DNA of 64,000 nt from Bacilli bacterium (GTDB lineage: Bacteria; Bacillota_I; Bacilli_A; RFN20; CAG-826), in NCBI GenBank assembly GCA_045226015.1, contig JBGVBY010000021.1, positions 17,485 through 81,484 on the forward strand, read 5' to 3'. How positions within the stretch are numbered: position 1 is the first letter of the stretch; each line of letters opens with the position of its first letter. Positions 4,425 to 23,539 of this stretch are shown in pieces. The notes beneath the pieces are model-generated. The model was not told the origin of the DNA, did no database searches, and saw nothing but the letters and a program-made list of their open reading frames with translations. Position numbers and translations under genes: made by a program.

Positions 4425-5705
4425 ATGAAAAACTTTGTATTAATTTCTCCAAACTTTCCAGAAACATATTGGCAATTCGCTAGAGCACTTAGAAACGTTG
4501 GCTTTAGAGTGCTCGGTGTTGGTGACGCCCAATACAGTGAACTTAAACAAGAACTCAAAGATTCTTTACACGAATACTATCGCGTAAACAACCTCGATAA
4601 TTTCGACGAAGAAAAAGAAGCGGTGGGTTATTTTGAAAGAAAATATGGACATATTGATTTCTTAGAAAGTAATAATGAATACTGGCTTAGAAAAGATTCA
4701 ATTTTAAGAGACCTCTTTTCAATTAATACAGGATTAAAATCATCGGAATTAGACACTTATCAACGTAAATCTTTGATGAAAGAAAGATTCCAAAAAGCAG
4801 GAGTAAAAGTCGCTCCATATATTCTCGTTAGCGATAAAGAAAGCTTGTTAAAGTTCGCTAACGATCACGGCTTCCCACTTTTTGTTAAACCTGATATTGG
4901 AGTTGGAGCCGAAGAAAGCTTTAAATTAAAAAATATTGAGGAATTAGAGGACTTTTTCGCGAAAAAACACGAAAATTATCAATATATTTGTGAGACATTT
5001 GTGTCTGGTGATATCGTCACTTTTGATGGCATCGCGGATGAAAATAGTGAGGTCGTATTTATGGCTTCATTAGAGTGCCCACCATCAATTAGTGACATTC
5101 TCCACGAAGGAAGTGAGATGTTTTATTACTCCAATCCATTCATTCCAAAAGAGTTTGAAGAAATTGGAAGAAAAACAGTCAAAGCATTCGAACTTAAAAA
5201 TAGATGTTTCCACATCGAATTCTTTAGAGTGAATAAAGATATGCCTGGATTTGCTAAGGTTGGAGATATTGTTGGATTAGAGGTTAATATTAGAACACCT
5301 GGCGGATACACTCCTGATATGCATAACTTCGCTAATTCAGTGAACATGTATCAACTATATGCGAACACAGTTGCGGGATTTAATCCACGTCCAGTTTGTG
5401 ATCCAAAATTCTACTGTGCAACCGCTAGTAGAAGAGATGGCGTTCAATACTTCTATAGCGATGAAGAAGTTTTAAGAACATACGAAAAAGAAATATGCGG
5501 TAACGGAAGATATCCAAAAGTTTTAGCAGGTGTTATGGGTGATCGTTTCTTTATGGCTAAATTCACCAACCTCAAGGACTTGGAAGTGTTTAAAGAATAC
5601 GCAAATAGAAGAAACGTACCTGGCGGTTCTAAAAATAGCGGTTCAATGTTCAACAAAGAAGGAAGTAATGAACCAATTTGCGATACACATATCGATGGAG
5701 CGTAA
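4425..5705 (+). CDS. ATP-grasp domain protein (carboxylate-amine ligase superfamily), function unknown
   Basis: 426 aa. ATP-grasp core is recognisable: KSLMKERFQKAGVKVAPYILV..HGFPLFVKPDIGVGAEESFKL..ETFVSGDIVTFDG... No specific family could be assigned. Confidence 0.55.
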   Translation: MKNFVLISPNFPETYWQFARALRNVGFRVLGVGDAQYSELKQELKDSLHEYYRVNNLDNFDEEKEAVGYFERKYGHIDFLESNNEYWLRKDSILRDLFSINTGLKSSELDTYQRKSLMKERFQKAGVKVAPYILVSDKESLLKFANDHGFPLFVKPDIGVGAEESFKLKNIEELEDFFAKKHENYQYICETFVSGDIVTFDGIADENSEVVFMASLECPPSISDILHEGSEMFYYSNPFIPKEFEEIGRKTVKAFELKNRCFHIEFFRVNKDMPGFAKVGDIVGLEVNIRTPGGYTPDMHNFANSVNMYQLYANTVAGFNPRPVCDPKFYCATASRRDGVQYFYSDEEVLRTYEKEICGNGRYPKVLAGVMGDRFFMAKFTNLKDLEVFKEYANRRNVPGGSKNSGSMFNKEGSNEPICDTHIDGA

Positions 5706-5707
5706 TC

Positions 5708-6214
5708 ATGTCTAATTTGTTATATCTACCAGAAGATTGGGACAACATCTTTAAAGCAGAAAGGGACAATCTTAGATTTGTTCTCCCAGAATTTAAATTC
5801 AATATTGAACATATCGGAGCAACATCAATTAATAATTGTCGTTCTTTTAGAAATGTCGATATTTTAATATCGCTATCTCATTTTAATGACATCTATACTG
5901 CAGCGATGTTACTTAATTCTCGTGGATATAAAATGCTTAACGCGCAATGTAGAAGTGACTGTGCGTTGCTCATTAAACGCAGCAAATATAAAAAGATAGG
6001 TGTCACTATTCGAATCGTTGAATACGGCGGAGATTTCTATAACCGCTGCAAGGCTTTCCAAGTGGTGTTAAGAGAATCTTATGATCGCACTCAAATGTAT
6101 AACAATTTTAGAGAAAAGCTATTTGCAAAATACCCAAAGAACATCAAGAGATATAACGAAGTTAAATACGACTATATCAATTCCCAATTAGATTACTATT
6201 TTAAATTTCAATAA
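5708..6214 (+). CDS. GrpB (UPF0157) family nucleotidyltransferase-fold protein
   Basis: ATG at 5708 lies 2 nt after the upstream stop. NIEHIGATSINNCRSFRNVDILISL resembles the GrpB HIGSTSVPG..IDI motif. The ORF-track start at 5678 is probably too far upstream. Confidence 0.5.
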   Translation: MSNLLYLPEDWDNIFKAERDNLRFVLPEFKFNIEHIGATSINNCRSFRNVDILISLSHFNDIYTAAMLLNSRGYKMLNAQCRSDCALLIKRSKYKKIGVTIRIVEYGGDFYNRCKAFQVVLRESYDRTQMYNNFREKLFAKYPKNIKRYNEVKYDYINSQLDYYFKFQ

Positions 6215-6215
6215 C

Positions 6216-7100
6216 ATGAACGGAATTATCATCACAAACCAAGACATTGGTCATAACGCTTATAAAATAAAACGATTCACTGAGGAAGCTAAACTTCTCG
6301 GTGTTTCTTTAATACATCTCATTAACGATGGAACTTTAGGCATTATTAAAGATAACAACATCATTATTAATCTTCCTAAATGTGATTTTGTCATTTATCT
6401 AGATAAAGACATATATTTAGCAAGACTATTAGAACAAAATGGTTATCGACTATTCAATAAGGCTGATTTCATCAAAATGTGTGATGATAAAAACCTCACA
6501 GACATCATGTGCGCGAACAAAGGTATTAAAATGCCTAAGACAATATGTGGCCCTTTGTTTTATTCTCCTGAATTAAAAGAAGAAAACCTAAAATTCTTGG
6601 ATTTTGTAGAACAAGAATTAGGATATCCTTTAGTGTTTAAGAAAGTTTATGGATCTCTTGGCCTAGGTATATTTTTAGTCAATAACAAGCAAGAACTCAT
6701 CTCTTTATATAAGAAACACTGTCGTGAACCACTACAATTCCAAGAATATATTGCCACAAGTTACGGCAAATCATTAAGGGTTCTTATAATCAATCAAAAA
6801 GTCATTGGAGCGTTTCAAAGATATAACACAAGCGACTTTAGAAGTAACTTCGGAGAAACCGCTACTAGTAAAGAATATAAACTTGAAGGCAAGTATTTAG
6901 AAATCGCTAATAAAATCGCCGAAGCATTTAAGGTTGAATACGCTGGTATTGATTTACTTTTTGGAGAAAACGATGAGCCAGTATTATGTGAAATAAATTC
7001 CAATGCCTTCTTTGAAGAATTTGAGAAAACTACTAAAATCAATGTTGCTAAACTCTTCATTGAAATGGTGATAGAAAAGATTAACAATGAACAAAAATAA
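6216..7100 (+). CDS. RimK-type ATP-grasp ligase (alpha-L-glutamate ligase family)
   Basis: 294 aa. LVFKKVYGSLGLGIFLVNNKQEL...KSLRVLIINQKVIGAFQRYNTSDFRSNFGETATSK...AGIDLLFGENDEPVLCEINSNA is typical of the RimK / glutathione-synthetase-like ATP-grasp fold. Confidence 0.65.
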   Translation: MNGIIITNQDIGHNAYKIKRFTEEAKLLGVSLIHLINDGTLGIIKDNNIIINLPKCDFVIYLDKDIYLARLLEQNGYRLFNKADFIKMCDDKNLTDIMCANKGIKMPKTICGPLFYSPELKEENLKFLDFVEQELGYPLVFKKVYGSLGLGIFLVNNKQELISLYKKHCREPLQFQEYIATSYGKSLRVLIINQKVIGAFQRYNTSDFRSNFGETATSKEYKLEGKYLEIANKIAEAFKVEYAGIDLLFGENDEPVLCEINSNAFFEEFEKTTKINVAKLFIEMVIEKINNEQK

Positions 7101-8010
7101 GAAAAGATTCGAACATCATTCAAAAGACTATTCCGGAATCAAAGAATACCCAGTGAATAAAGATTCTGAACTTTTAGAATTTCTTTTGGAAACCTTAAAG
7201 GGACAGTCACGTAATTCTGTTAAATCTCTTTTAACCAACCATCGTGTTTCTATTGATGGAGCGCCTATTTCTCAATATAACTTCAAGCTCTATAAAGGAG
7301 ATGTTGTTATTATCTCTAAGACTCCAATTCACAAGAAAACACGCAGCAACCTACCTATAATCTATGAAAATAACGAGATGATTGTTATCAATAAACCAAG
7401 TGGTCTATTATCTATCGCTAGTGATAAAGAAAAAGGATCAACTGCTTATAGGATGCTAACTGATTACGTTCAGCAAAAAGACAAACATAATCGTATATTT
7501 GTTGTCCATAGACTTGATGAAGACACTTCTGGAGTCCTAATGGTAGCTAAAAATCCAGAACTACAAAAGGCTCTTCAAGATAATTGGAACGATTTAGTTA
7601 AATCTCGTGGGTACTATGCGATTGTTGACGGCATCATGAAAGAAAAAAGTGGCACGATTAAGTCTTACTTAAAGAAGAATAGCCAAAACATGATGTATTC
7701 ATCTAAAAAAGCTGGTGATGGACAGTTCTCTGTAACGCATTACAAAGTTTTAATGGAAAATGGAAACTATTCACTTTTAGATGTTCATATTGATTCAGGT
7801 AGAAAAAATCAAATTCGTGTCCATTTAGGTGATTTAGGTCATAACGTTATCGGAGATGACAAATACGGTAATCCTACTAACCCTATTAAGAGATTAGGCT
7901 TGCATGCCTATGAACTTGTTTTAACTCACCCACTCACAAATAAAGAACTCAAATTTGTCGCGCCTACACCGAAAGAATTTAAAACTCTTTTCCCAAATTT
8001 CAATAAATAA
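7087..8010 (+). CDS. RluA-family 23S rRNA pseudouridine synthase (RluD/RluC-like) with N-terminal S4 domain
   Basis: HRLDEDTSGVLMVAKN catalytic motif and the C-terminal RLGLHAYELVLTHPLT. S4-like N-terminus HRVSIDGAPISQYNFKLYKGDVVII. Confidence 0.85.
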   Translation: MNKNKKRFEHHSKDYSGIKEYPVNKDSELLEFLLETLKGQSRNSVKSLLTNHRVSIDGAPISQYNFKLYKGDVVIISKTPIHKKTRSNLPIIYENNEMIVINKPSGLLSIASDKEKGSTAYRMLTDYVQQKDKHNRIFVVHRLDEDTSGVLMVAKNPELQKALQDNWNDLVKSRGYYAIVDGIMKEKSGTIKSYLKKNSQNMMYSSKKAGDGQFSVTHYKVLMENGNYSLLDVHIDSGRKNQIRVHLGDLGHNVIGDDKYGNPTNPIKRLGLHAYELVLTHPLTNKELKFVAPTPKEFKTLFPNFNK

Positions 8011-8082
8011 GCTTTTATCTATTCAAAAATAATTTTTATTTTTCGTTTATAAACTTTTTTGTATGCGTATAATTTTAAGCAT

Positions 8083-9672
8083 ATGAGAAACAAATATTTA
8101 AAGTCGTTTATTAATAGCGCAATTTCGATCATTCCAATCATTGCGATTATTTACGCTTTATCTTTTGTTTTGTCCGCTAGTGGAGAACAATCTTTAACAA
8201 ACACTGAATATGTGATGTTAGGCATTGGTGCCTTCATCATGATTAGCGGATTATCATTCTTCCAAATAGGTGCTCAAAGTAGCTTGATCAAAATTGGCGA
8301 ATACATGGGTGCTTCTTTGTCTAAACAAAAGAAACTCATCATCGTTATCATATTTGCCTTCCTATTAGGCACTCTTATCACATGTGCTGAACCAAGCATC
8401 ATAATCATGTCTAAGCAAGTTAATATGAACTCAGTTCTTTTAATTGCATCTATTGCTTGTGGAGTTGGCGTTTTTGTTATCTTAGGAATTATTAGAATTG
8501 TTACCCAAAAATCATTAAACGTGTGGTTTCTTACGTTCTATTTGATTGTTTTTATGCTTATCTGCATCCTTCAAGCAGATGTTAATAATCATCCATATCT
8601 ACCATTCATTTTTGACGCTGGTGGAATTACTACTGGAAGTGCTACTGTTCCATTTATTTTAGCCTTAGGTGCAGGTGTTGCTATGACTAGAGGTGGAGAT
8701 AAAACTAAAGACAGTTCTTTCGGTCTAGTTGGATTAGCGTCTATTGGCCCTATTATCACAATGGTGATTTTGATCTTGGCTAAACCTGGTGGATTCTCAG
8801 CTTACAACGTCACTGAATTACCCGCTATTAATCCTGACTATGTTGATTGGAACTATATCGGTAACCAATTTGTAAGAACCTTGTTGCCTCAAGAAGGTGG
8901 TTCTTTAGGATCTATTATTGAAGTTTTATTAGCGTTAGCACCAATCTTAATTATTTTCTTCATCTATGAAGCAATCTTTATCAAGTTATCTCTTAAGCGT
9001 ATCTTTTTCTTATTAAACGGTACATTTGTAACATTCTTTGGATTAACGATGTTCCTTTGTGCAGTTGGTTCCACAATGTCTCCAACCGGATTAAAGATGG
9101 GCGAACTTATTTCTAATTGGCAAGATTGGATTATCATCATTCTCGCCTTTGGAATTGGTTGTGTCACTATTCTATGTGAACCAGCAGTACATGTTCTTAC
9201 CACTCAAATAGAAGAAATTAGTAACGGCGAGCTTAAAAAGAGAACCGTATTATTCTCATTATCAATAGGTGTAGGCGCTGCAATATGTCTATCCATGATT
9301 AGAATGCTTTATGGCTTCTCAATTATGTATTACATCGTTCCTGGATATTTAATATCGCTTGTTATGATGTTTATTGTTCCTGATTTATACACTGCGGTTG
9401 CTTTTGACTCTGGTGGAACAGCTTCTGGACCAATGGCGGTTTCCTTTGTCCTTCCAATGATTATTGGTATATTCAGTGTTAGAACTGGCCAAACATCAAG
9501 TGTAGACTTCTATGAATCTGCTTTTGGAGTTGTCGCAATGGTAGCTATGACACCAATTCTGTCTATTCAAATACTTGGTACAACAAGTAAAATTAAGAAC
9601 ATCTACGCTTTACGTGTTATTCGTTCACAAGTTCATGATGGACGTAATGATGAAATCATTCATTTTTGTTAA
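8083..9672 (+). CDS. Polytopic membrane protein with internal two-fold repeat (DUF1538-like putative transporter)
   Basis: About 12 predicted TM segments. Two homologous halves (DAGGITTGSATVPFILALGAGVA / DSGGTASGPMAVSFVLPMIIGI). Followed by two PII-like genes. Confidence 0.5.
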   Translation: MRNKYLKSFINSAISIIPIIAIIYALSFVLSASGEQSLTNTEYVMLGIGAFIMISGLSFFQIGAQSSLIKIGEYMGASLSKQKKLIIVIIFAFLLGTLITCAEPSIIIMSKQVNMNSVLLIASIACGVGVFVILGIIRIVTQKSLNVWFLTFYLIVFMLICILQADVNNHPYLPFIFDAGGITTGSATVPFILALGAGVAMTRGGDKTKDSSFGLVGLASIGPIITMVILILAKPGGFSAYNVTELPAINPDYVDWNYIGNQFVRTLLPQEGGSLGSIIEVLLALAPILIIFFIYEAIFIKLSLKRIFFLLNGTFVTFFGLTMFLCAVGSTMSPTGLKMGELISNWQDWIIIILAFGIGCVTILCEPAVHVLTTQIEEISNGELKKRTVLFSLSIGVGAAICLSMIRMLYGFSIMYYIVPGYLISLVMMFIVPDLYTAVAFDSGGTASGPMAVSFVLPMIIGIFSVRTGQTSSVDFYESAFGVVAMVAMTPILSIQILGTTSKIKNIYALRVIRSQVHDGRNDEIIHFC

Positions 9673-9681
9673 GGTATAAAT

Positions 9682-10080
9682 ATGGCAAAGAAAGAAACAA
9701 AAAAGAACAATTCTAAACAAGCTCGTTTTGAAGATCGTGAAGACCTCAGAAAGTTATACCTTTACACGATTATTGTTCCTCGTGGACACGGCGATAACAT
9801 CATCCGTATCTTAAAAACGAATAAGAGCAGCGCTCAATTCTTTCAAATGGGAGAAGGCACTGCCAGTAGTAAAATCAGAGAACTTTTAGACATTGAAGAT
9901 ACAAAGAAAGATATCGTTTATTCTGTTGTCAGTGGTGAAGCAGTCAAATATATCAAAAAAGAATTAGATGCTTATTTCTTAGCGAGTAGAAGAAATAGAG
10001 GTATTGCATATACCATTCCATTAACCGCTTTAGTGGGGGTTAAAATGTACAAATTCTTCACTCAAACAGTTAGGGGGTAA
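9682..10080 (+). CDS. PII-like (GlnB-superfamily) signalling protein, divergent, with basic N-terminal extension
   Basis: 132 aa. Core ~100 aa has a ferredoxin-like PII pattern (YTIIVPRGHGDNIIRIL...GIAYTIPLTALVG). Translationally coupled to the next gene. Confidence 0.45.
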   Translation: MAKKETKKNNSKQARFEDREDLRKLYLYTIIVPRGHGDNIIRILKTNKSSAQFFQMGEGTASSKIRELLDIEDTKKDIVYSVVSGEAVKYIKKELDAYFLASRRNRGIAYTIPLTALVGVKMYKFFTQTVRG

Positions 10081-10082
10081 TT

Positions 10083-10406
10083 ATGGCAGAAAAGAATATG
10101 AATCACGAAGTGATCGTGGTAATCGTTAACGAAGGCCATTCAGACAAAGTAATGGACGCTGCTAGAGAAGCAGGAGCAAGAGGTGGTACTATCATCCACG
10201 CTCGTGGAAGTGGTACAAAAGACATCGAGAAAAAATATGGGGTTGTGATTACTCCTCAAAAAGAAATGCTCTATATTTTAGTGAATGAAAAAATAAGAGA
10301 TGCAGTCATTTCTTCTATCAATAAATCAGTCGGTCTAGAGACTCCAGGACAAGGTATTGTTTTCTCTTTACCAGTGAGCAATATCTCTGGTTTAAAATTA
10401 GATTAA
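10083..10406 (+). CDS. PII-like (nitrogen-regulatory P-II family) protein
   Basis: 107 aa. EVIVVIVNEGHSDKVMDAAREAGARGGTIIHARGSG...GQGIVFSLPVSNISGLK follows the PII fold pattern (beta-alpha-beta with a T-loop region). Confidence 0.55.
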   Translation: MAEKNMNHEVIVVIVNEGHSDKVMDAAREAGARGGTIIHARGSGTKDIEKKYGVVITPQKEMLYILVNEKIRDAVISSINKSVGLETPGQGIVFSLPVSNISGLKLD

Positions 10407-10479
10407 ATAGGTTATTTATTACATTCGTTAAAAATACGAATATAATTAATAGTATAAAAATCCAAGGGGGATAATAATT

Positions 10480-10833
10480 ATGCCAGCAAAGAAACCAGTT
10501 AAGGCTAAACCAGCTCCAGCAAAGAAAGCTGCGGTTAAAAAAGCTGTCCCAGCAAAGAAACCAGCAGTTAAGAAAGCTGAACCTGCAAAGAAAGCTCCAG
10601 CAAAGAAACCTGCCAAAAAAGAAGAAGTTAGCTTCCGTACTTATCACTTAGCAAAAAGAGAAGATGGCAAATGGGCAGTTAAATACGCTGGAGGAGAAAA
10701 GGCTATCAAATTATTCGATACTCAAAAAGAGGCATTAGAATATTCTAAGAAGATGGCTAAAAACCAAGACGGCTCCGTTTTAGTTCATAACTCAAAAGGC
10801 GCGAACAAAGGCAGAATTGCTAAAAAGAGATAA
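10480..10833 (+). CDS. DUF2188 domain protein with histone-H1-like Lys/Ala/Pro-rich N-terminal repeat tail
   Basis: N-terminus: repeated PAKK/AVKKA units (PAKKPVKAKPAPAKKAAVKKAVPAKKPAVKKAEPAKKAPAKKPAKK), encoded by a tandem CCAGCAAAGAAA DNA repeat. C-terminus FRTYHLAKREDGKWAVKYAGGEKAIKLFDTQKEALEYSKKMAKNQDGSVLVH matches DUF2188. Confidence 0.7.
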   Translation: MPAKKPVKAKPAPAKKAAVKKAVPAKKPAVKKAEPAKKAPAKKPAKKEEVSFRTYHLAKREDGKWAVKYAGGEKAIKLFDTQKEALEYSKKMAKNQDGSVLVHNSKGANKGRIAKKR

Positions 10834-10849
10834 TCTCTTATACAGAAAA

Positions 10850-10884
10850 GAAAAAAGCGTTGGAATCAAAATCCAGCGCTTTTC
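10850..10884. terminator. Bidirectional rho-independent terminator between the DUF2188 gene (+) and typA (-)
   Basis: AAAAAAGCGTTGGAatcaaaaTCCAGCGCTTTT: 9-bp stem with one G-U pair, A-run upstream and T-run downstream. Confidence 0.7.
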
Positions 10885-10900
10885 TTATATGATAAATGAG

Positions 10901-12733
10901 TTATTCTGCTTCTTGTGCTCTTTTAACATGAGCCTCGTATTTCTTTCTTTCGGCAGTATTTAAGATCTTCTTTCTCATACGATATGTAGTAGGAGTAATC
11001 TCCACTAACTCGTCAGCGTTAATATAGTCAAGACACGCTTCTAAGGACATCTTACGTGGTGATTTAAGAACAACAGTGGTGTCTTTATTTGATGAACGAA
11101 CGTTGGTTAAGTTCTTCTTTTGAGTAACGTTAACCGCAAGATCAAAATCATAACGATGTTCACCAACAATCATACCTTCATACACTTCAGTACCTGGAAG
11201 AATAAACATGGTTCCGCGTTCTTCAGTGTGTTCAATCGCATAAGGTGTAGCTTGTCCTGCCTCAACAGACACAAGAACTCCAATATTTCTTTCTCCAATA
11301 GAAGAGGCGGTGATAGGACGATATTCTTTATACGTGTGAGATAAAATGCCATAACCCTTAGTTAAAGTCATGAAATTAGTCATATATCCTAATAAACCTC
11401 TACTAGGAATAACATAGTTAAGAATAGTGACTGTTTCTTTAGCGTCCATATTGATGAGTTCACCATTACGTTCTCCAATTGTGGTCATAATGTCACCCAC
11501 AAATTCATTAGGAACATCAATTAATAAATCTTCGTATGGTTCGCATTTAACTCCATCAATCTCTTTAATAATAACTTGAGGTTTACTAACTTCGAGTTCA
11601 AAGCCTTCTCTTCTCATGTTTTCAATTAAAATTGAAAGATGTAACTCACCTCTACCAGAAACAATCCAGCTTTCAGTGTTAATAATACGTTCAACCTTTA
11701 AAGCAACATCTTTTTGAGTTTCTCTAAACAATCTTTCTTCTATTTTTCTAGCAGTTAAAAGTTTTCCATCTCTTCCACTTAATGGAGAAGAGCTTGTTCC
11801 GAAAGTCATTTGCAAGGTTGGCTCATCTAATCTAATTAGTGGAAGAGGATCAACATGACCAAATTGACAGATAGTTTCTCCAACATTAATATCCGCTAAT
11901 CCAGCTACCGCAACGATATCACCAGCATGAGCCTCGTTAATTTCTAGTCTCTTTAATCCTTGGAAACCAAATAATTTAAGCACTCTAAAGTTACTAACTT
12001 CGCCATTTAAGCGCGATACCGACACGTTATCGTTAACTTTGATGGTTCCTCTTTTAATCGTTCCAATACCAATCCTTCCAACGAAATCGTTGTAATCAAG
12101 TAAGGCAACTTGGAGTTGTAATGGAGAATCTTTATCCATACTTGGAGCTGGGATTTGATCTATGATGGTTTGTAAAACTGCATCCATTCCTTCTACTTGA
12201 GAAGCAGGATCACTTGAATATGATGATGTTCCTTTTAACGCAGAAGTAAATACGGTTTTGAAATCTAAGAATTCATCTGGAGCACCTAATTCAATAAACA
12301 AAGTAAGTACTTCGTCTAAAGTTTTCTCCACATCAATATTTGCTCTATCAACTTTATTGATAACAACAATTGGCTTAACATGAGCTTCTAACGCTTTCTT
12401 TAAAACGAATCTAGTTTGAGGCATTGTGCCTTCAAAAGCATCAACAAGTAATAAACAACCATCCACCATGTTCATAATACGTTCGACTTCTCCTCCAAAG
12501 TCAGCGTGACCTGGAGTGTCTAAAATATTGATCTTAGTGTCTTTATAAATGATGGAAGTAGTTTTTGCTAAGATAGTAATTCCTCTTTCACGTTCAATGT
12601 CATTTGAATCCATCGCACGATCAGATAATTCTTCATTAGCCCTAAATGTAGCAGATGATTTAAGAAGTTGGTCAACAAGTGTAGTCTTGCCGTGATCAAC
12701 GTGAGCGATAATTGCAATATTTCTTACATCCAT
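10901..12733 (-). CDS. typA: Translational GTPase TypA/BipA
   Basis: 610 aa. IRNIAIIAHVDHGKTTLVD G-domain. Overall EF-G-like architecture and BipA C-terminal domain. Confidence 0.95.
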   Translation of the reverse strand: MDVRNIAIIAHVDHGKTTLVDQLLKSSATFRANEELSDRAMDSNDIERERGITILAKTTSIIYKDTKINILDTPGHADFGGEVERIMNMVDGCLLLVDAFEGTMPQTRFVLKKALEAHVKPIVVINKVDRANIDVEKTLDEVLTLFIELGAPDEFLDFKTVFTSALKGTSSYSSDPASQVEGMDAVLQTIIDQIPAPSMDKDSPLQLQVALLDYNDFVGRIGIGTIKRGTIKVNDNVSVSRLNGEVSNFRVLKLFGFQGLKRLEINEAHAGDIVAVAGLADINVGETICQFGHVDPLPLIRLDEPTLQMTFGTSSSPLSGRDGKLLTARKIEERLFRETQKDVALKVERIINTESWIVSGRGELHLSILIENMRREGFELEVSKPQVIIKEIDGVKCEPYEDLLIDVPNEFVGDIMTTIGERNGELINMDAKETVTILNYVIPSRGLLGYMTNFMTLTKGYGILSHTYKEYRPITASSIGERNIGVLVSVEAGQATPYAIEHTEERGTMFILPGTEVYEGMIVGEHRYDFDLAVNVTQKKNLTNVRSSNKDTTVVLKSPRKMSLEACLDYINADELVEITPTTYRMRKKILNTAERKKYEAHVKRAQEAE

Positions 12734-12803
12734 ATTCTGCCCTCCTAATAAAAAATCTTTTCTAGTATAAGAAAAGACAAAGTATTATTTCAAGAGAAAT
12801 ATA

Positions 12804-13643
12804 TTATTTAAATAAATCTTTAATGTGATTCTTGCGAATTTTATATACGTCAGACGCTATTTCAATCGCATCTTTTTTACTGACACCTTTATTTATAAAG
12901 TATTGAACTTTATCAATTATTTCTTGGTCATTATATTCTTCGTTTGATTCATTGCCATTAACCACAATAACCATCTCGCCCTTTAAGGAATCTAAATCCA
13001 TAGCCACTAATTCCTTAAGAGTGCCATATATCTTTTCTTCGTTGAGTTTAGTTAATTCTCTCTGGAGAGAAACTTTTCTGTCACCAAGAACTTCATATAG
13101 CAACATCATAGTGGTTTTTATACGATGTGGACTCTCATAGAACACTAAGGTTTCTTGTTTGGATTTCAAAGATAAAAGTTCTTCTTTTGCTTCATTAGGT
13201 TTAGCAGAAAGAAATCCATGGAAATAAAAATGAGCTGTATCTAATCCTGAACTAGTAAGCGCATTTATAAAAGCACATCCGCCTGAAATAACAGACACTG
13301 CTATATCGTTTTCAATACATTTTTTACATAAAATGTAACCAGGGTCAGAAATACCAGGATATCCAGCGTCACTCATATATGCAACTTTTTTACCAGCAAG
13401 AACTTGTTCAACAATCTTATTAGACGCTTCAACTTCATTGTGTTCTCTAAGGGAAAATAATGGTTTTGATAAATTGAATTTTCTTAGAAGATCACCTGTA
13501 TTTCTGGTGTCTTCAGCGGCCACTAAATCAACTCCACGAATTGTTTCAATAGCACGTTCAGAAAATTCTCCTAAATTGCCAATAGGAGTAGCAATTAAAT
13601 ATAGAACTTTATGTGAATCATCAAATGATTTAATTATTTTCAT
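12804..13643 (-). CDS. rsmI: 16S rRNA (cytidine1402-2'-O)-methyltransferase RsmI
   Basis: LYLIATPIGNLGEFSERAIETIRGVDLVAAEDTRNTGDLL tetrapyrrole-methylase-like motifs. Start is uncertain: 13643 (MKIIKSF) or the track start 13697. Conserved position after ricT. Confidence 0.85.
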   Translation of the reverse strand: MKIIKSFDDSHKVLYLIATPIGNLGEFSERAIETIRGVDLVAAEDTRNTGDLLRKFNLSKPLFSLREHNEVEASNKIVEQVLAGKKVAYMSDAGYPGISDPGYILCKKCIENDIAVSVISGGCAFINALTSSGLDTAHFYFHGFLSAKPNEAKEELLSLKSKQETLVFYESPHRIKTTMMLLYEVLGDRKVSLQRELTKLNEEKIYGTLKELVAMDLDSLKGEMVIVVNGNESNEEYNDQEIIDKVQYFINKGVSKKDAIEIASDVYKIRKNHIKDLFK

Positions 13644-14502
13644 CGTTTTCAGGTTTATTAGGTCTTGGTCTAAAACCAGTTTGTTTTTTAAATTCATCTA
13701 AAGGTAAGAATTTAGAATCTTCTTCATTATCAACCTTCACCATCCTTGAAACAACATTTATTGTTGTAACGGTGTATTCAACTTTATCAATAAAGACTTT
13801 AAACCCAACTGGTGGGAATTCTTTCTTAAGTTCACTATAAGCATCGTCTTCATATTTTAAGCAGCATAATAGCTTTCCACAGTGGCCAGATAACTTAGGA
13901 ACATTAATTGCGAGCATTTGGTTTTTAGCACGGTTGATTGAAATTCCATCAAACTCATTTAAGAAACTAGCACAGCATAAAGGTAATCCGCACATTCCAA
14001 TGCCTCCAACCATTTTAGCCTTGTCTCTACTACCAACTTGGCGGAGTTCAATACGAGTGTGGAATCTACTAGCGAGCACCTTTAAAAGCTCGCGGAAATC
14101 AACACGATCATCGGCAACATATGAGAAGATAACTTTGCTCTTATCTAGTGTGTATTCACATGAAATGAGATTCATATCAATACCTAGACGTTTTACCTCG
14201 TTTTTACAAATTTCAAGGGCATTTTGCGCATCTTTTAGGTTAGTTTCATGTAATTTTTCATCAATATCTGTGGCTTTTCTTAAGATTGGCTTTAAGTTCA
14301 ATCGAGAACGATATTCACTCATTGGCATTGGGTCAATCCAGATGGTTCCAAACTCAGGTCCATGCATTGTTTCAACAACAACTTTGTCTCCCTTTTTGAG
14401 CTCTAAATCCTTGTTTCCAAAAAAGTACGCATGGTTAGAATAATGGAATTTAACACCAGCGAAATTGGTATATCTTTCATTTACATTTATTTCGTTTTCC
14501 AT
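13630..14502 (-). CDS. ricT: PSP1-domain protein RicT/YaaT
   Basis: PSP1 C-terminal domain with Cys-rich cluster (GGIGMCGLPLCCASFL...CGKLLCCLKYE). Lies downstream of holB as in B. subtilis. Confidence 0.85.
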   Translation of the reverse strand: MENEINVNERYTNFAGVKFHYSNHAYFFGNKDLELKKGDKVVVETMHGPEFGTIWIDPMPMSEYRSRLNLKPILRKATDIDEKLHETNLKDAQNALEICKNEVKRLGIDMNLISCEYTLDKSKVIFSYVADDRVDFRELLKVLASRFHTRIELRQVGSRDKAKMVGGIGMCGLPLCCASFLNEFDGISINRAKNQMLAINVPKLSGHCGKLLCCLKYEDDAYSELKKEFPPVGFKVFIDKVEYTVTTINVVSRMVKVDNEEDSKFLPLDEFKKQTGFRPRPNKPENDENN

Positions 14503-23012: not shown

Positions 23013-23539
23013 CCTTGTTATTAGAGTTAAATATCTTTGCTTTTCATAACTCTATTCTTGAAAACCAAGTCGCAATATGCCAAGCATACCCTTGCTTGAC
23101 GCAAAGCACATATTACTTTTCACCAATTACATAGGGGTGATTTTGATGAACTGGACTCCTTTGACACACCTGTTATTTGCTGAAGGTGGAACTCTGTGGT
23201 CATTAGCCACTAGTTGCCTATTTCGATCGTGTCTGGTATCCGGAATTACGCATACAAGTCCTAACTTTGCACCCGGTAAATTATTCAGGGAGGTTTAGAC
23301 CATTGAATCAACGATTCATAATTGGCTGTTTAATTGAGTTTTAATCAAAACTAAGTATCAGCTTCCTTAGTACAGCTCAATTAATATAACAAACGTTTGA
23401 TAAAAATGAAACAAGAAATAAAAAAGTCCATTAAGGACTTAGTGCATCGGGCAGATCGAGCTGCCAATTGGTGCGCGGTTGTCTGAGCCTATTCAGCTCT
23501 GCGTACAACTTGTGAATATATTAAATCAAAAGAAAGGAG

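Follow-up and report, generated by a model that had tools for sequence, protein, structure and literature searches.

A three-gene module at positions 8059-10406 of the window, by which we mean the whole 64,000-nucleotide (nt) stretch of contig JBGVBY010000021.1 from a Bacilli bacterium (assembly GCA_045226015.1), encodes a membrane protein of the DUF1538 family together with two small proteins of the PII fold, referred to here as PII-A and PII-B. On balance, we favour the reading that the membrane protein is an ion-coupled transporter, probably a cation/proton exchanger, and that it is regulated by the dedicated PII-A/PII-B pair. That the three genes form a conserved functional unit is strongly supported by comparison of related loci, because gene order is conserved among them and natural fusions join the products. 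In the window the genes are three open reading frames (ORFs) arranged head to tail:

8059..9672, plus strand: DUF1538 membrane protein gene, 537 amino acids (aa) when read from TTG 8059 and 529 aa from the probable start at ATG 8083.
9682..10080, plus strand: PII-A, a divergent PII-fold protein of 132 aa, recognised with AlphaFold, Foldseek and hhalign.
10083..10406, plus strand: PII-B, a PF00543-type PII protein of 107 aa, recognised by its match to that family (E 6.2e-12).

A preliminary description of this locus placed gaps of 1-2 nt between the genes, which is true of the second gap (2 nt, 10081-10082) but not of the first (9 nt, 9673-9681).

The membrane protein had been described as transporter-like with two homologous halves, and so it proves: it matches Pfam DUF1538 (PF07556) in two stretches at 345.7 bits (cut-off 22.6, E 9.4e-104), the halves are 28% identical to one another (BLASTP, E 5e-17), and more than 6,600 clusters of homologues were found. 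Counting residues from TTG 8059, the protein divides as follows:

8095..8766, plus strand: DUF1538 repeat 1, aa 13-236, coinciding with the NCBIfam UmpB-like stretch 13-236.
8782..8910, plus strand: non-membrane linker between the repeats, aa 242-284, net acidic and with no hydrophobic helix in the model.
8917..9582, plus strand: DUF1538 repeat 2, aa 287-508, with the best Pfam stretch at 296-508 and the UmpA-like stretch at 287-507.
9595..9669, plus strand: basic C-terminal tail ending EIIHF, putatively cytoplasmic, defined from the family alignment and from the fusion point in a homologue, P0253.

The AlphaFold model of this protein is entirely helical (predicted local distance difference test, pLDDT, 88; predicted template modelling score, pTM, 0.87), and neither sequence nor fold comparison found a solved structural relative, SbtA and AmtB included. 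Each modelled repeat probably has seven helices. The same three residues are invariant in both, namely E111 (within AEPS), R146 and D186 (within FDAGG) in repeat 1, and E374 (CEPA), R415 and D450 (FDSGG) in repeat 2; indeed, the two repeats of fused proteins, like the two subunits of those relatives whose transporter is split between two genes, all have as invariant residues the Glu of E-P, the Asp of D-(A/S)-G-(G/S) and one Arg. In the model, helix breaks coincide with the E-P and D-x-G-G motifs (110-111 and 191-195 in repeat 1), while the Arg lies inside a helix; ion-coupled transporters typically have buried carboxylates where their helices are interrupted. From the spread of Lys and Arg over the model's helices and loops, the linker having two Lys/Arg against four Asp/Glu, the two repeats are most likely oppositely oriented, with the N- and C-termini both cytoplasmic and the linker outside. 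The preliminary description had spoken of inverted repeats; the repetition stands, and this charge distribution is the one line of evidence for the inversion.

The same description regarded the transported substrate as unknown, but the DUF1538 family is not wholly uncharacterised. UmpAB of Halomonas zhaodongensis, a DUF1538 pair, was reported to mediate Na+(Li+,K+)/H+ antiport both in Escherichia coli KNabc and in everted vesicles; the insert that was cloned stopped at umpB, and the paper makes no mention of PII proteins (PMC5484666). This is the only experimental study of DUF1538 in the literature that we searched, where no paper linked DUF1538 with PII. Later papers used UmpAB homologues only as salinity markers, and a machine-learning study predicting growth pH from genomes has DUF1538 among its ion-transport features.

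PII-A had no match in Pfam (E<=0.01), NCBIfam or the sequences of the PDB, and its identification comes from structure. The AlphaFold model, built from 26 homologues (pLDDT 77), has the order beta-alpha-beta-beta-alpha-beta (E25-33, H37-46, E51-58, E75-84, H85-101, E108-113, with E for strand and H for helix). Foldseek returned 97 matches in the PDB at E<=0.001, every one of the 50 listed being PII or PII-like, with SbtB, TTHA0516, CPII and GlnK ranking best, and the PII-A profile aligns with that of PII-B at an hhalign probability of 97.1% (E 5e-11). Taken together, the model fold, the Foldseek matches and the profile alignment identify the two small proteins as PII paralogues, and this agrees with the earlier assignment of both to the GlnB fold as distinct paralogues. 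PII-A is also, as had been said of one of them, divergent with a basic N-terminal extension (aa 1-15), which is Lys-rich and has seven Lys/Arg in its 15 residues. Its T-loop is short and helical (aa 57-76, GEGTASSKIRELLDIEDTKK), and its C-terminus, GVKMYKF.TQTVRG, is invariant and forms a conserved C-terminal helix. In common with PII-B it has G-x-G-T, a conserved LG(L/I) in the T-loop, the Lys and the GIA(F/Y) strand. A full-library profile search places 1,423 cluster representatives in the PII-A family at E<=1e-3, many of them tandem proteins of 220-280 aa.

PII-B, on the other hand, matches PF00543 (P-II) directly, at 46.2 bits (cut-off 25, E 6.2e-12), so that the DUF1538 and PF00543-like folds predicted for the locus were both found. 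When aligned to the PII protein of Thermus thermophilus, it keeps the glycines equivalent to G27, G35, G37, G87 and G89 and the equivalent of K58, the nucleotide-cleft positions in its own numbering being G34, G42, G44, K60, G89 and G91; it has lost R38/Q39 by deletion, K90 to Ile, R101 to Gly and R103 to Lys, and its T-loop (aa 42-60) is five residues shorter. The strongest signature of the PII-B family is AGARGGT with A(R/K)G(T/S)G, motifs that mark both ends of strand beta-2 where it lines the cleft between subunits, and its B-loop is variable. In PII-B, this cleft probably remains a site for a ligand. Among solved structures, the best match to the PII-B profile is chain H of 9P1X (E 5e-8), the nitrogenase-NifI1,2 supercomplex of M. 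acetivorans, in which the length (105 aa) and 12 copies of chain H fit NifI1. Against the model of the PG0541 transporter-associated PII-like family (NF045581), PII-B scores 19.3 bits, below the cut-off of 45.

The case for a functional unit comes from comparison with other genomes. A genome scan with the membrane protein alone found the trio at two close loci, one of them in an Erysipelotrichaceae genome and the other in a metagenome-assembled genome of Bacilli, and a metagenome scan with an 83-sequence alignment recovered 80 loci at 34-70% identity on contigs with largely gut or rumen names. When stop-to-stop ORFs were tallied in those loci with at least 800 nt downstream (n=72), two PII-like domains lay directly 3' of the fused DUF1538 gene in 70, as two ORFs in 38 cases and as one tandem ORF in the other 32. 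Their order is constant, with the divergent PII-A domain first and the PF00543-like domain second, and the GGT motif separates them, being present in 2/70 first domains against 69/70 second domains. Annotated records from Vescimonas and Peptoclostridium carry the tandem form as a 'P-II family nitrogen regulator' of 222-224 aa. In P0253, a protein of 654 aa, two DUF1538 repeats are followed by a C-terminal PII-A domain, the junction falling just after QVIHF. Since this fusion joins the membrane protein to PII-A and the tandem ORFs join PII-A to PII-B, every adjacent pair in the module is somewhere covalently joined. The conservation of the trio and the pairing of a transporter with a PII sensor, both raised in the preliminary description, are well founded in these loci.

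The same fusion draws attention to the tail of the membrane protein, where I534 and F536 of EIIHF are invariant and I533 and H535 nearly so. Because P0253 attaches PII-A directly after the equivalent QVIHF, the tail may be where PII-A docks or is tethered. Beyond the module itself, no other gene is consistently adjacent among the related loci; an RluD-like gene is a recurrent neighbour, preceding the DUF1538 gene in nine of them, and a neighbour cluster of 17 loci seems, from the coordinates of its representative ORF, to consist of an ORF that runs antisense to the DUF1538 gene.

The number of PII domains follows the form of the transporter. In the split form, DUF1538 is encoded by two genes of about 240 aa each, and all five such contexts have just one PII-B-type gene (108-122 aa) after them. 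These contexts (L005, L087, L088, L090 and L092) come from Chelativorans, Methylocystis and three metagenomic settings, while fused genes are followed by two PII domains (70/72). Two PII paralogues are, then, the norm for the fused DUF1538 subfamily and not peculiar to the locus in the window. On the strength of these five split and 72 fused loci, it looks as if PII-B is the general partner of the DUF1538 family, with PII-A a paralogue added in the fused lineage. As a separate observation, the split module in L092 (1-7747) is flanked by a Usp protein and a P-type cation ATPase (Cation_ATPase_N/C type), a heavy-metal ATPase also lying close by, and a Usp gene adjoins the split module of L088 as well.

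The motifs for canonical ligand binding and for uridylylation are missing from both PII proteins. The preliminary description proposed comparing their T-loops with those of SbtB, DarA/PstA and GlnB; in both the loop is short. The T-loop uridylylation motif, Y-[KR]-G-[AS]-[AE]-Y, occurs in none of 140 domains, and the canonical B-loop pattern in none of the 70 first or 70 second domains; a GlnB control sequence matches the uridylylation pattern. GGFL, the motif of PstA/DarA-type proteins (PMC6516651), is in neither PII-A nor PII-B of the window. PII-A ends QTVRG and PII-B ends GLKLD, with no Cys in either, so that there is no Cys tail of the SbtB type. With the canonical ATP and 2-oxoglutarate residues lost in both proteins, the pair must either respond to another signal or detect it in another way, and its ligand would be other than MgATP/2-oxoglutarate in the canonical binding mode.

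In proposing a mechanism, our essential contention is that one operon would encode both a secondary, ion-coupled DUF1538 transporter and a dedicated pair of cytoplasmic PII-like regulators. The invariant Glu, Asp and Arg of each repeat would provide a buried charge set of the kind used by cation/proton exchangers, and the substrate, by homology to UmpAB, would most likely be a monovalent cation, with protons moving in exchange. On the cytoplasmic side, close to the conserved tail at the C-terminus, PII-A and PII-B would assemble in equal amounts, as the tandem fusions of the two domains imply. A small-molecule ligand held in the PII clefts would then determine whether the pair opens or closes the transporter. 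That UmpAB antiport was obtained from a clone carrying no PII gene (PMC5484666) is consistent with the PII proteins regulating transport and not catalysing it. Within this scheme, we infer the transported ion, the topology, the protein contact, the stoichiometry, the ligand and the direction of regulation.

A bolder form of the same proposal would have PII-A and PII-B as an obligate 1:1 hetero-oligomer, docked on the tail of a transporter with 7+7 inverted-repeat helices. The complex would gate cation/proton exchange as it responds to some ligand that is not MgATP/2-oxoglutarate, perhaps a cyclic (di)nucleotide such as cyclic di-AMP (c-di-AMP), which controls cation transport in Bacillota. We consider it unlikely that all of these particulars hold at once. 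If the hetero-oligomer did prove to be 1:1, NifI1,2 would be its sole predecessor among known heteromeric PII complexes, and a ligand like c-di-AMP would bring a large gut and rumen Bacillota family under second-messenger control of ion homeostasis.

Several points weigh against our interpretation. The window protein scores only 120.4 bits against the UmpA model (NF041627) and 128.1 bits against that for UmpB (NF041628), far below the orthologue cut-offs of 490 and 500; by these scores it is a distant homologue of UmpA and UmpB and not an orthologue, and its substrate may differ from that of UmpAB as a result. The assignment of antiport to UmpAB itself rests on a single study (PMC5484666). One or both PII proteins may bind no nucleotide, given that the B-loop is variable in PII-B and that GGT is missing in PII-A. 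The 80 metagenomic loci are the best matches to the query and come from gut and rumen, which makes them a biased sample. Finally, there is no riboswitch upstream of the operon, either in the window or in 15 related loci, and neither this nor any conserved neighbour gives a physiological clue.

The alternative that survives best retains the same architecture with another substrate, which could be bicarbonate or another anion, ammonium, an organic osmolyte or a metabolite, so that the PII pair would couple transport to carbon, nitrogen or energy status. We hold this to be a possible, if somewhat unlikely, explanation. The distance from UmpAB (120-128 bits against 490-500) speaks for it, as does the fact that PII proteins known to be linked to transporters act mostly in the uptake of nitrogen or carbon; SbtB regulates SbtA and GlnK regulates AmtB, and SbtB, CPII and GlnK are among the top fold matches of PII-A. 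In addition, the Peptoclostridium locus adjoins a ClC exchanger and an amino-acid permease. However, the invariant Glu/Asp/Arg set is common to the split proteins, which resemble UmpAB equally well: all matches from a tblastn search of plasmids and from a homologue search with the Methylocystis subunit are as distant from UmpAB as is the window protein. In fold and sequence, moreover, the membrane protein resembles no solved transporter, SbtA and AmtB included; metabolic genes are not conserved beside the module, and the residues for 2-oxoglutarate and MgATP are absent.

It is quite improbable, in our view, that the membrane protein is instead a sensor or anchor that captures or releases the PII pair, which would then regulate other cytoplasmic targets. 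PII proteins do typically have several targets, the sequestration of GlnK by AmtB offers a model, and the conserved C-terminal helix of PII-A (GVKMYKF.TQTVRG) and its Lys-rich N-terminus could contact other partners or lipids; yet the PII genes are almost never found apart from DUF1538, and the PII domains are often fused to one another and once to the transporter, where a permanently tethered PII could not shuttle. Chance adjacency, or mere co-transcription with no functional link, is effectively refuted by the retention of the arrangement among loci with as little as 34% protein identity, whether split or fused, in Bacillota and Alphaproteobacteria alike, and by the fusions.

The sequence also offers some indication of how the module is expressed. 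The relevant signals are these:

8046..8073, plus strand: promoter-like site TTTATA-16 nt-TATAAT, a 10/12 match, with a putative promoter function.
9671..9675, plus strand: Shine-Dalgarno-like AAGGT, read from the sequence, overlapping the TAA stop of the membrane protein gene and 6 nt upstream of the PII-A ATG.
10072..10077, plus strand: Shine-Dalgarno AGGGGG within the 3' end of PII-A, just ahead of its stop and 5 nt upstream of the PII-B ATG.

The membrane protein most likely starts at ATG 8083 rather than TTG 8059, because the homologue consensus begins MKNRYL, to which MRNKYL corresponds in the window, and because TTG 8059 lies inside the promoter-like site, which is the joint-best match within 6900-11000. 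The -10 hexamer of that site (8068-8073) ends 9 nt upstream of ATG 8083, with no Shine-Dalgarno sequence between them. This arrangement, GTATAAT-9 nt-ATG with no Shine-Dalgarno sequence, is kept in four loci of 66-78% protein identity (window 8046-8085, L001 4946-5018, L002 4787-4859 and L006 487-559), which suggests that the mRNA of the membrane protein gene is leaderless or nearly so; L009 differs in having a longer leader carrying AGGAGA. The Shine-Dalgarno site of PII-A has counterparts in taaGGGG (L001), taaGGTG (L006) and taaGGAGG (L009).

Around the module, an upstream cluster on the plus strand (4425-8010) encodes an ATP-grasp protein (426 aa), GrpB (a 178-aa ORF), a RimK-like ATP-grasp protein (294 aa) and an RluD-like pseudouridine synthase (307 aa), the ends of these genes overlapping or abutting. 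It has counterparts in L001 (1313-4900, conserved) and L086 (4744-8329), in both of which GrpB is 168 aa. Directly 3' of the trio, in the window and in L086, is a gene for a DUF2188 protein (10480-10833, plus strand) that is not among the recurrent neighbour clusters; its N-terminal half is rich in Lys, Ala and Pro, like histone H1, and it has a promoter-like site of its own at 10418-10446. On the minus strand, 10901-14502 holds ORFs named by sequence appearance as a TypA/BipA-like GTPase (610 aa), an RsmI-like protein (297 aa) and a PSP1/YaaT-like protein (290 aa), which suggest an ordinary chromosomal context rather than a mobile element. The only Rfam match in the window, a cow-rumen-1 RNA (RF02946) at 23217-23279 on the minus strand (56.3 bits, gathering threshold 53.4), fits a rumen or gut origin.

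The structural features of the module have analogues in several known systems. UmpAB is the nearest relative of the membrane component, belonging to the same family (PF07556), and its subunits are two homologous units of seven helices that act jointly; the N-terminal half of the window protein matches UmpB and the C-terminal half UmpA, but where UmpAB consists of two polypeptides the window protein is a single fused chain. The SbtA-SbtB system, to which the preliminary description had likened the locus, also places a PII-like gene after a transporter gene, and SbtB structures are top fold matches of PII-A. However, the membrane proteins show no relationship in either sequence or fold, and the window has two PII paralogues and no C-terminal Cys extension, so that the resemblance, as far as these comparisons go, is an analogy of layout and not homology. 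AmtB-GlnK likewise has a PII protein encoded beside, and acting on, a membrane transport protein, and PII-B shares its PF00543 domain; the window differs in having no Amt domain and in the PII-B T-loop, which is about five residues shorter, and PII-B has no R38/Q39, uridylylation motif, K90 or R101.

The pairing of two PII paralogues encoded side by side is reminiscent of NifI1-NifI2, which form one complex and in which the T-loop of NifI1 is also short. NifI1,2 is a 2:1 heterotrimer with canonical MgATP/2-oxoglutarate binding and nitrogenase as its target, and has been described as the sole PII complex known to be heteromeric. In the window, by contrast, the pair has a membrane partner and the canonical ligand residues are lost. 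The tandem fusions imply equal amounts, so any joint assembly would differ from NifI1,2, being perhaps two trimers or another arrangement; there are no nif genes near the trio, whose neighbours are RluD-like, ATP-grasp, DUF2188 and TypA-like GTPase genes (the last by sequence appearance). PstA/DarA are small PII-fold signalling proteins of the same phylum, but the window proteins lack GGFL, PII-B belongs to PF00543, and the loop lengths are not swapped as they are in PstA. PotN and CPII are PII-like proteins tied genetically to a transporter (PotABCD or DAB) and both are among the fold matches of PII-A, although they serve other transporter families, with one PII gene each, and their ligand complexes have been solved. 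A further candidate for comparison, the 'PII-like' membrane protein BB0017 of Borrelia, was rejected as an unrelated member of the YitT/DUF2179 family.

To our knowledge, the transporter-PII cases described so far, with AmtB-GlnK and SbtA-SbtB as the main examples, involve a single PII type and transporters of solved fold. Both small proteins at this locus adopt a PII fold and DUF1538 is not a well-characterised family, the two points on which the preliminary description had made itself depend; the locus is a typical representative of a large family, and that family is an unstudied variant of the transporter-plus-PII theme. What sets the module apart from these known systems is its abundance (>6,600 membrane-protein clusters and about 1,400 PII-A representatives), a membrane fold with no solved relative, and two PII paralogues whose frequent tandem fusion implies a heteromeric PII assembly. 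The module could also show whether cation/proton antiport, the one function reported for DUF1538, holds for the family as a whole.

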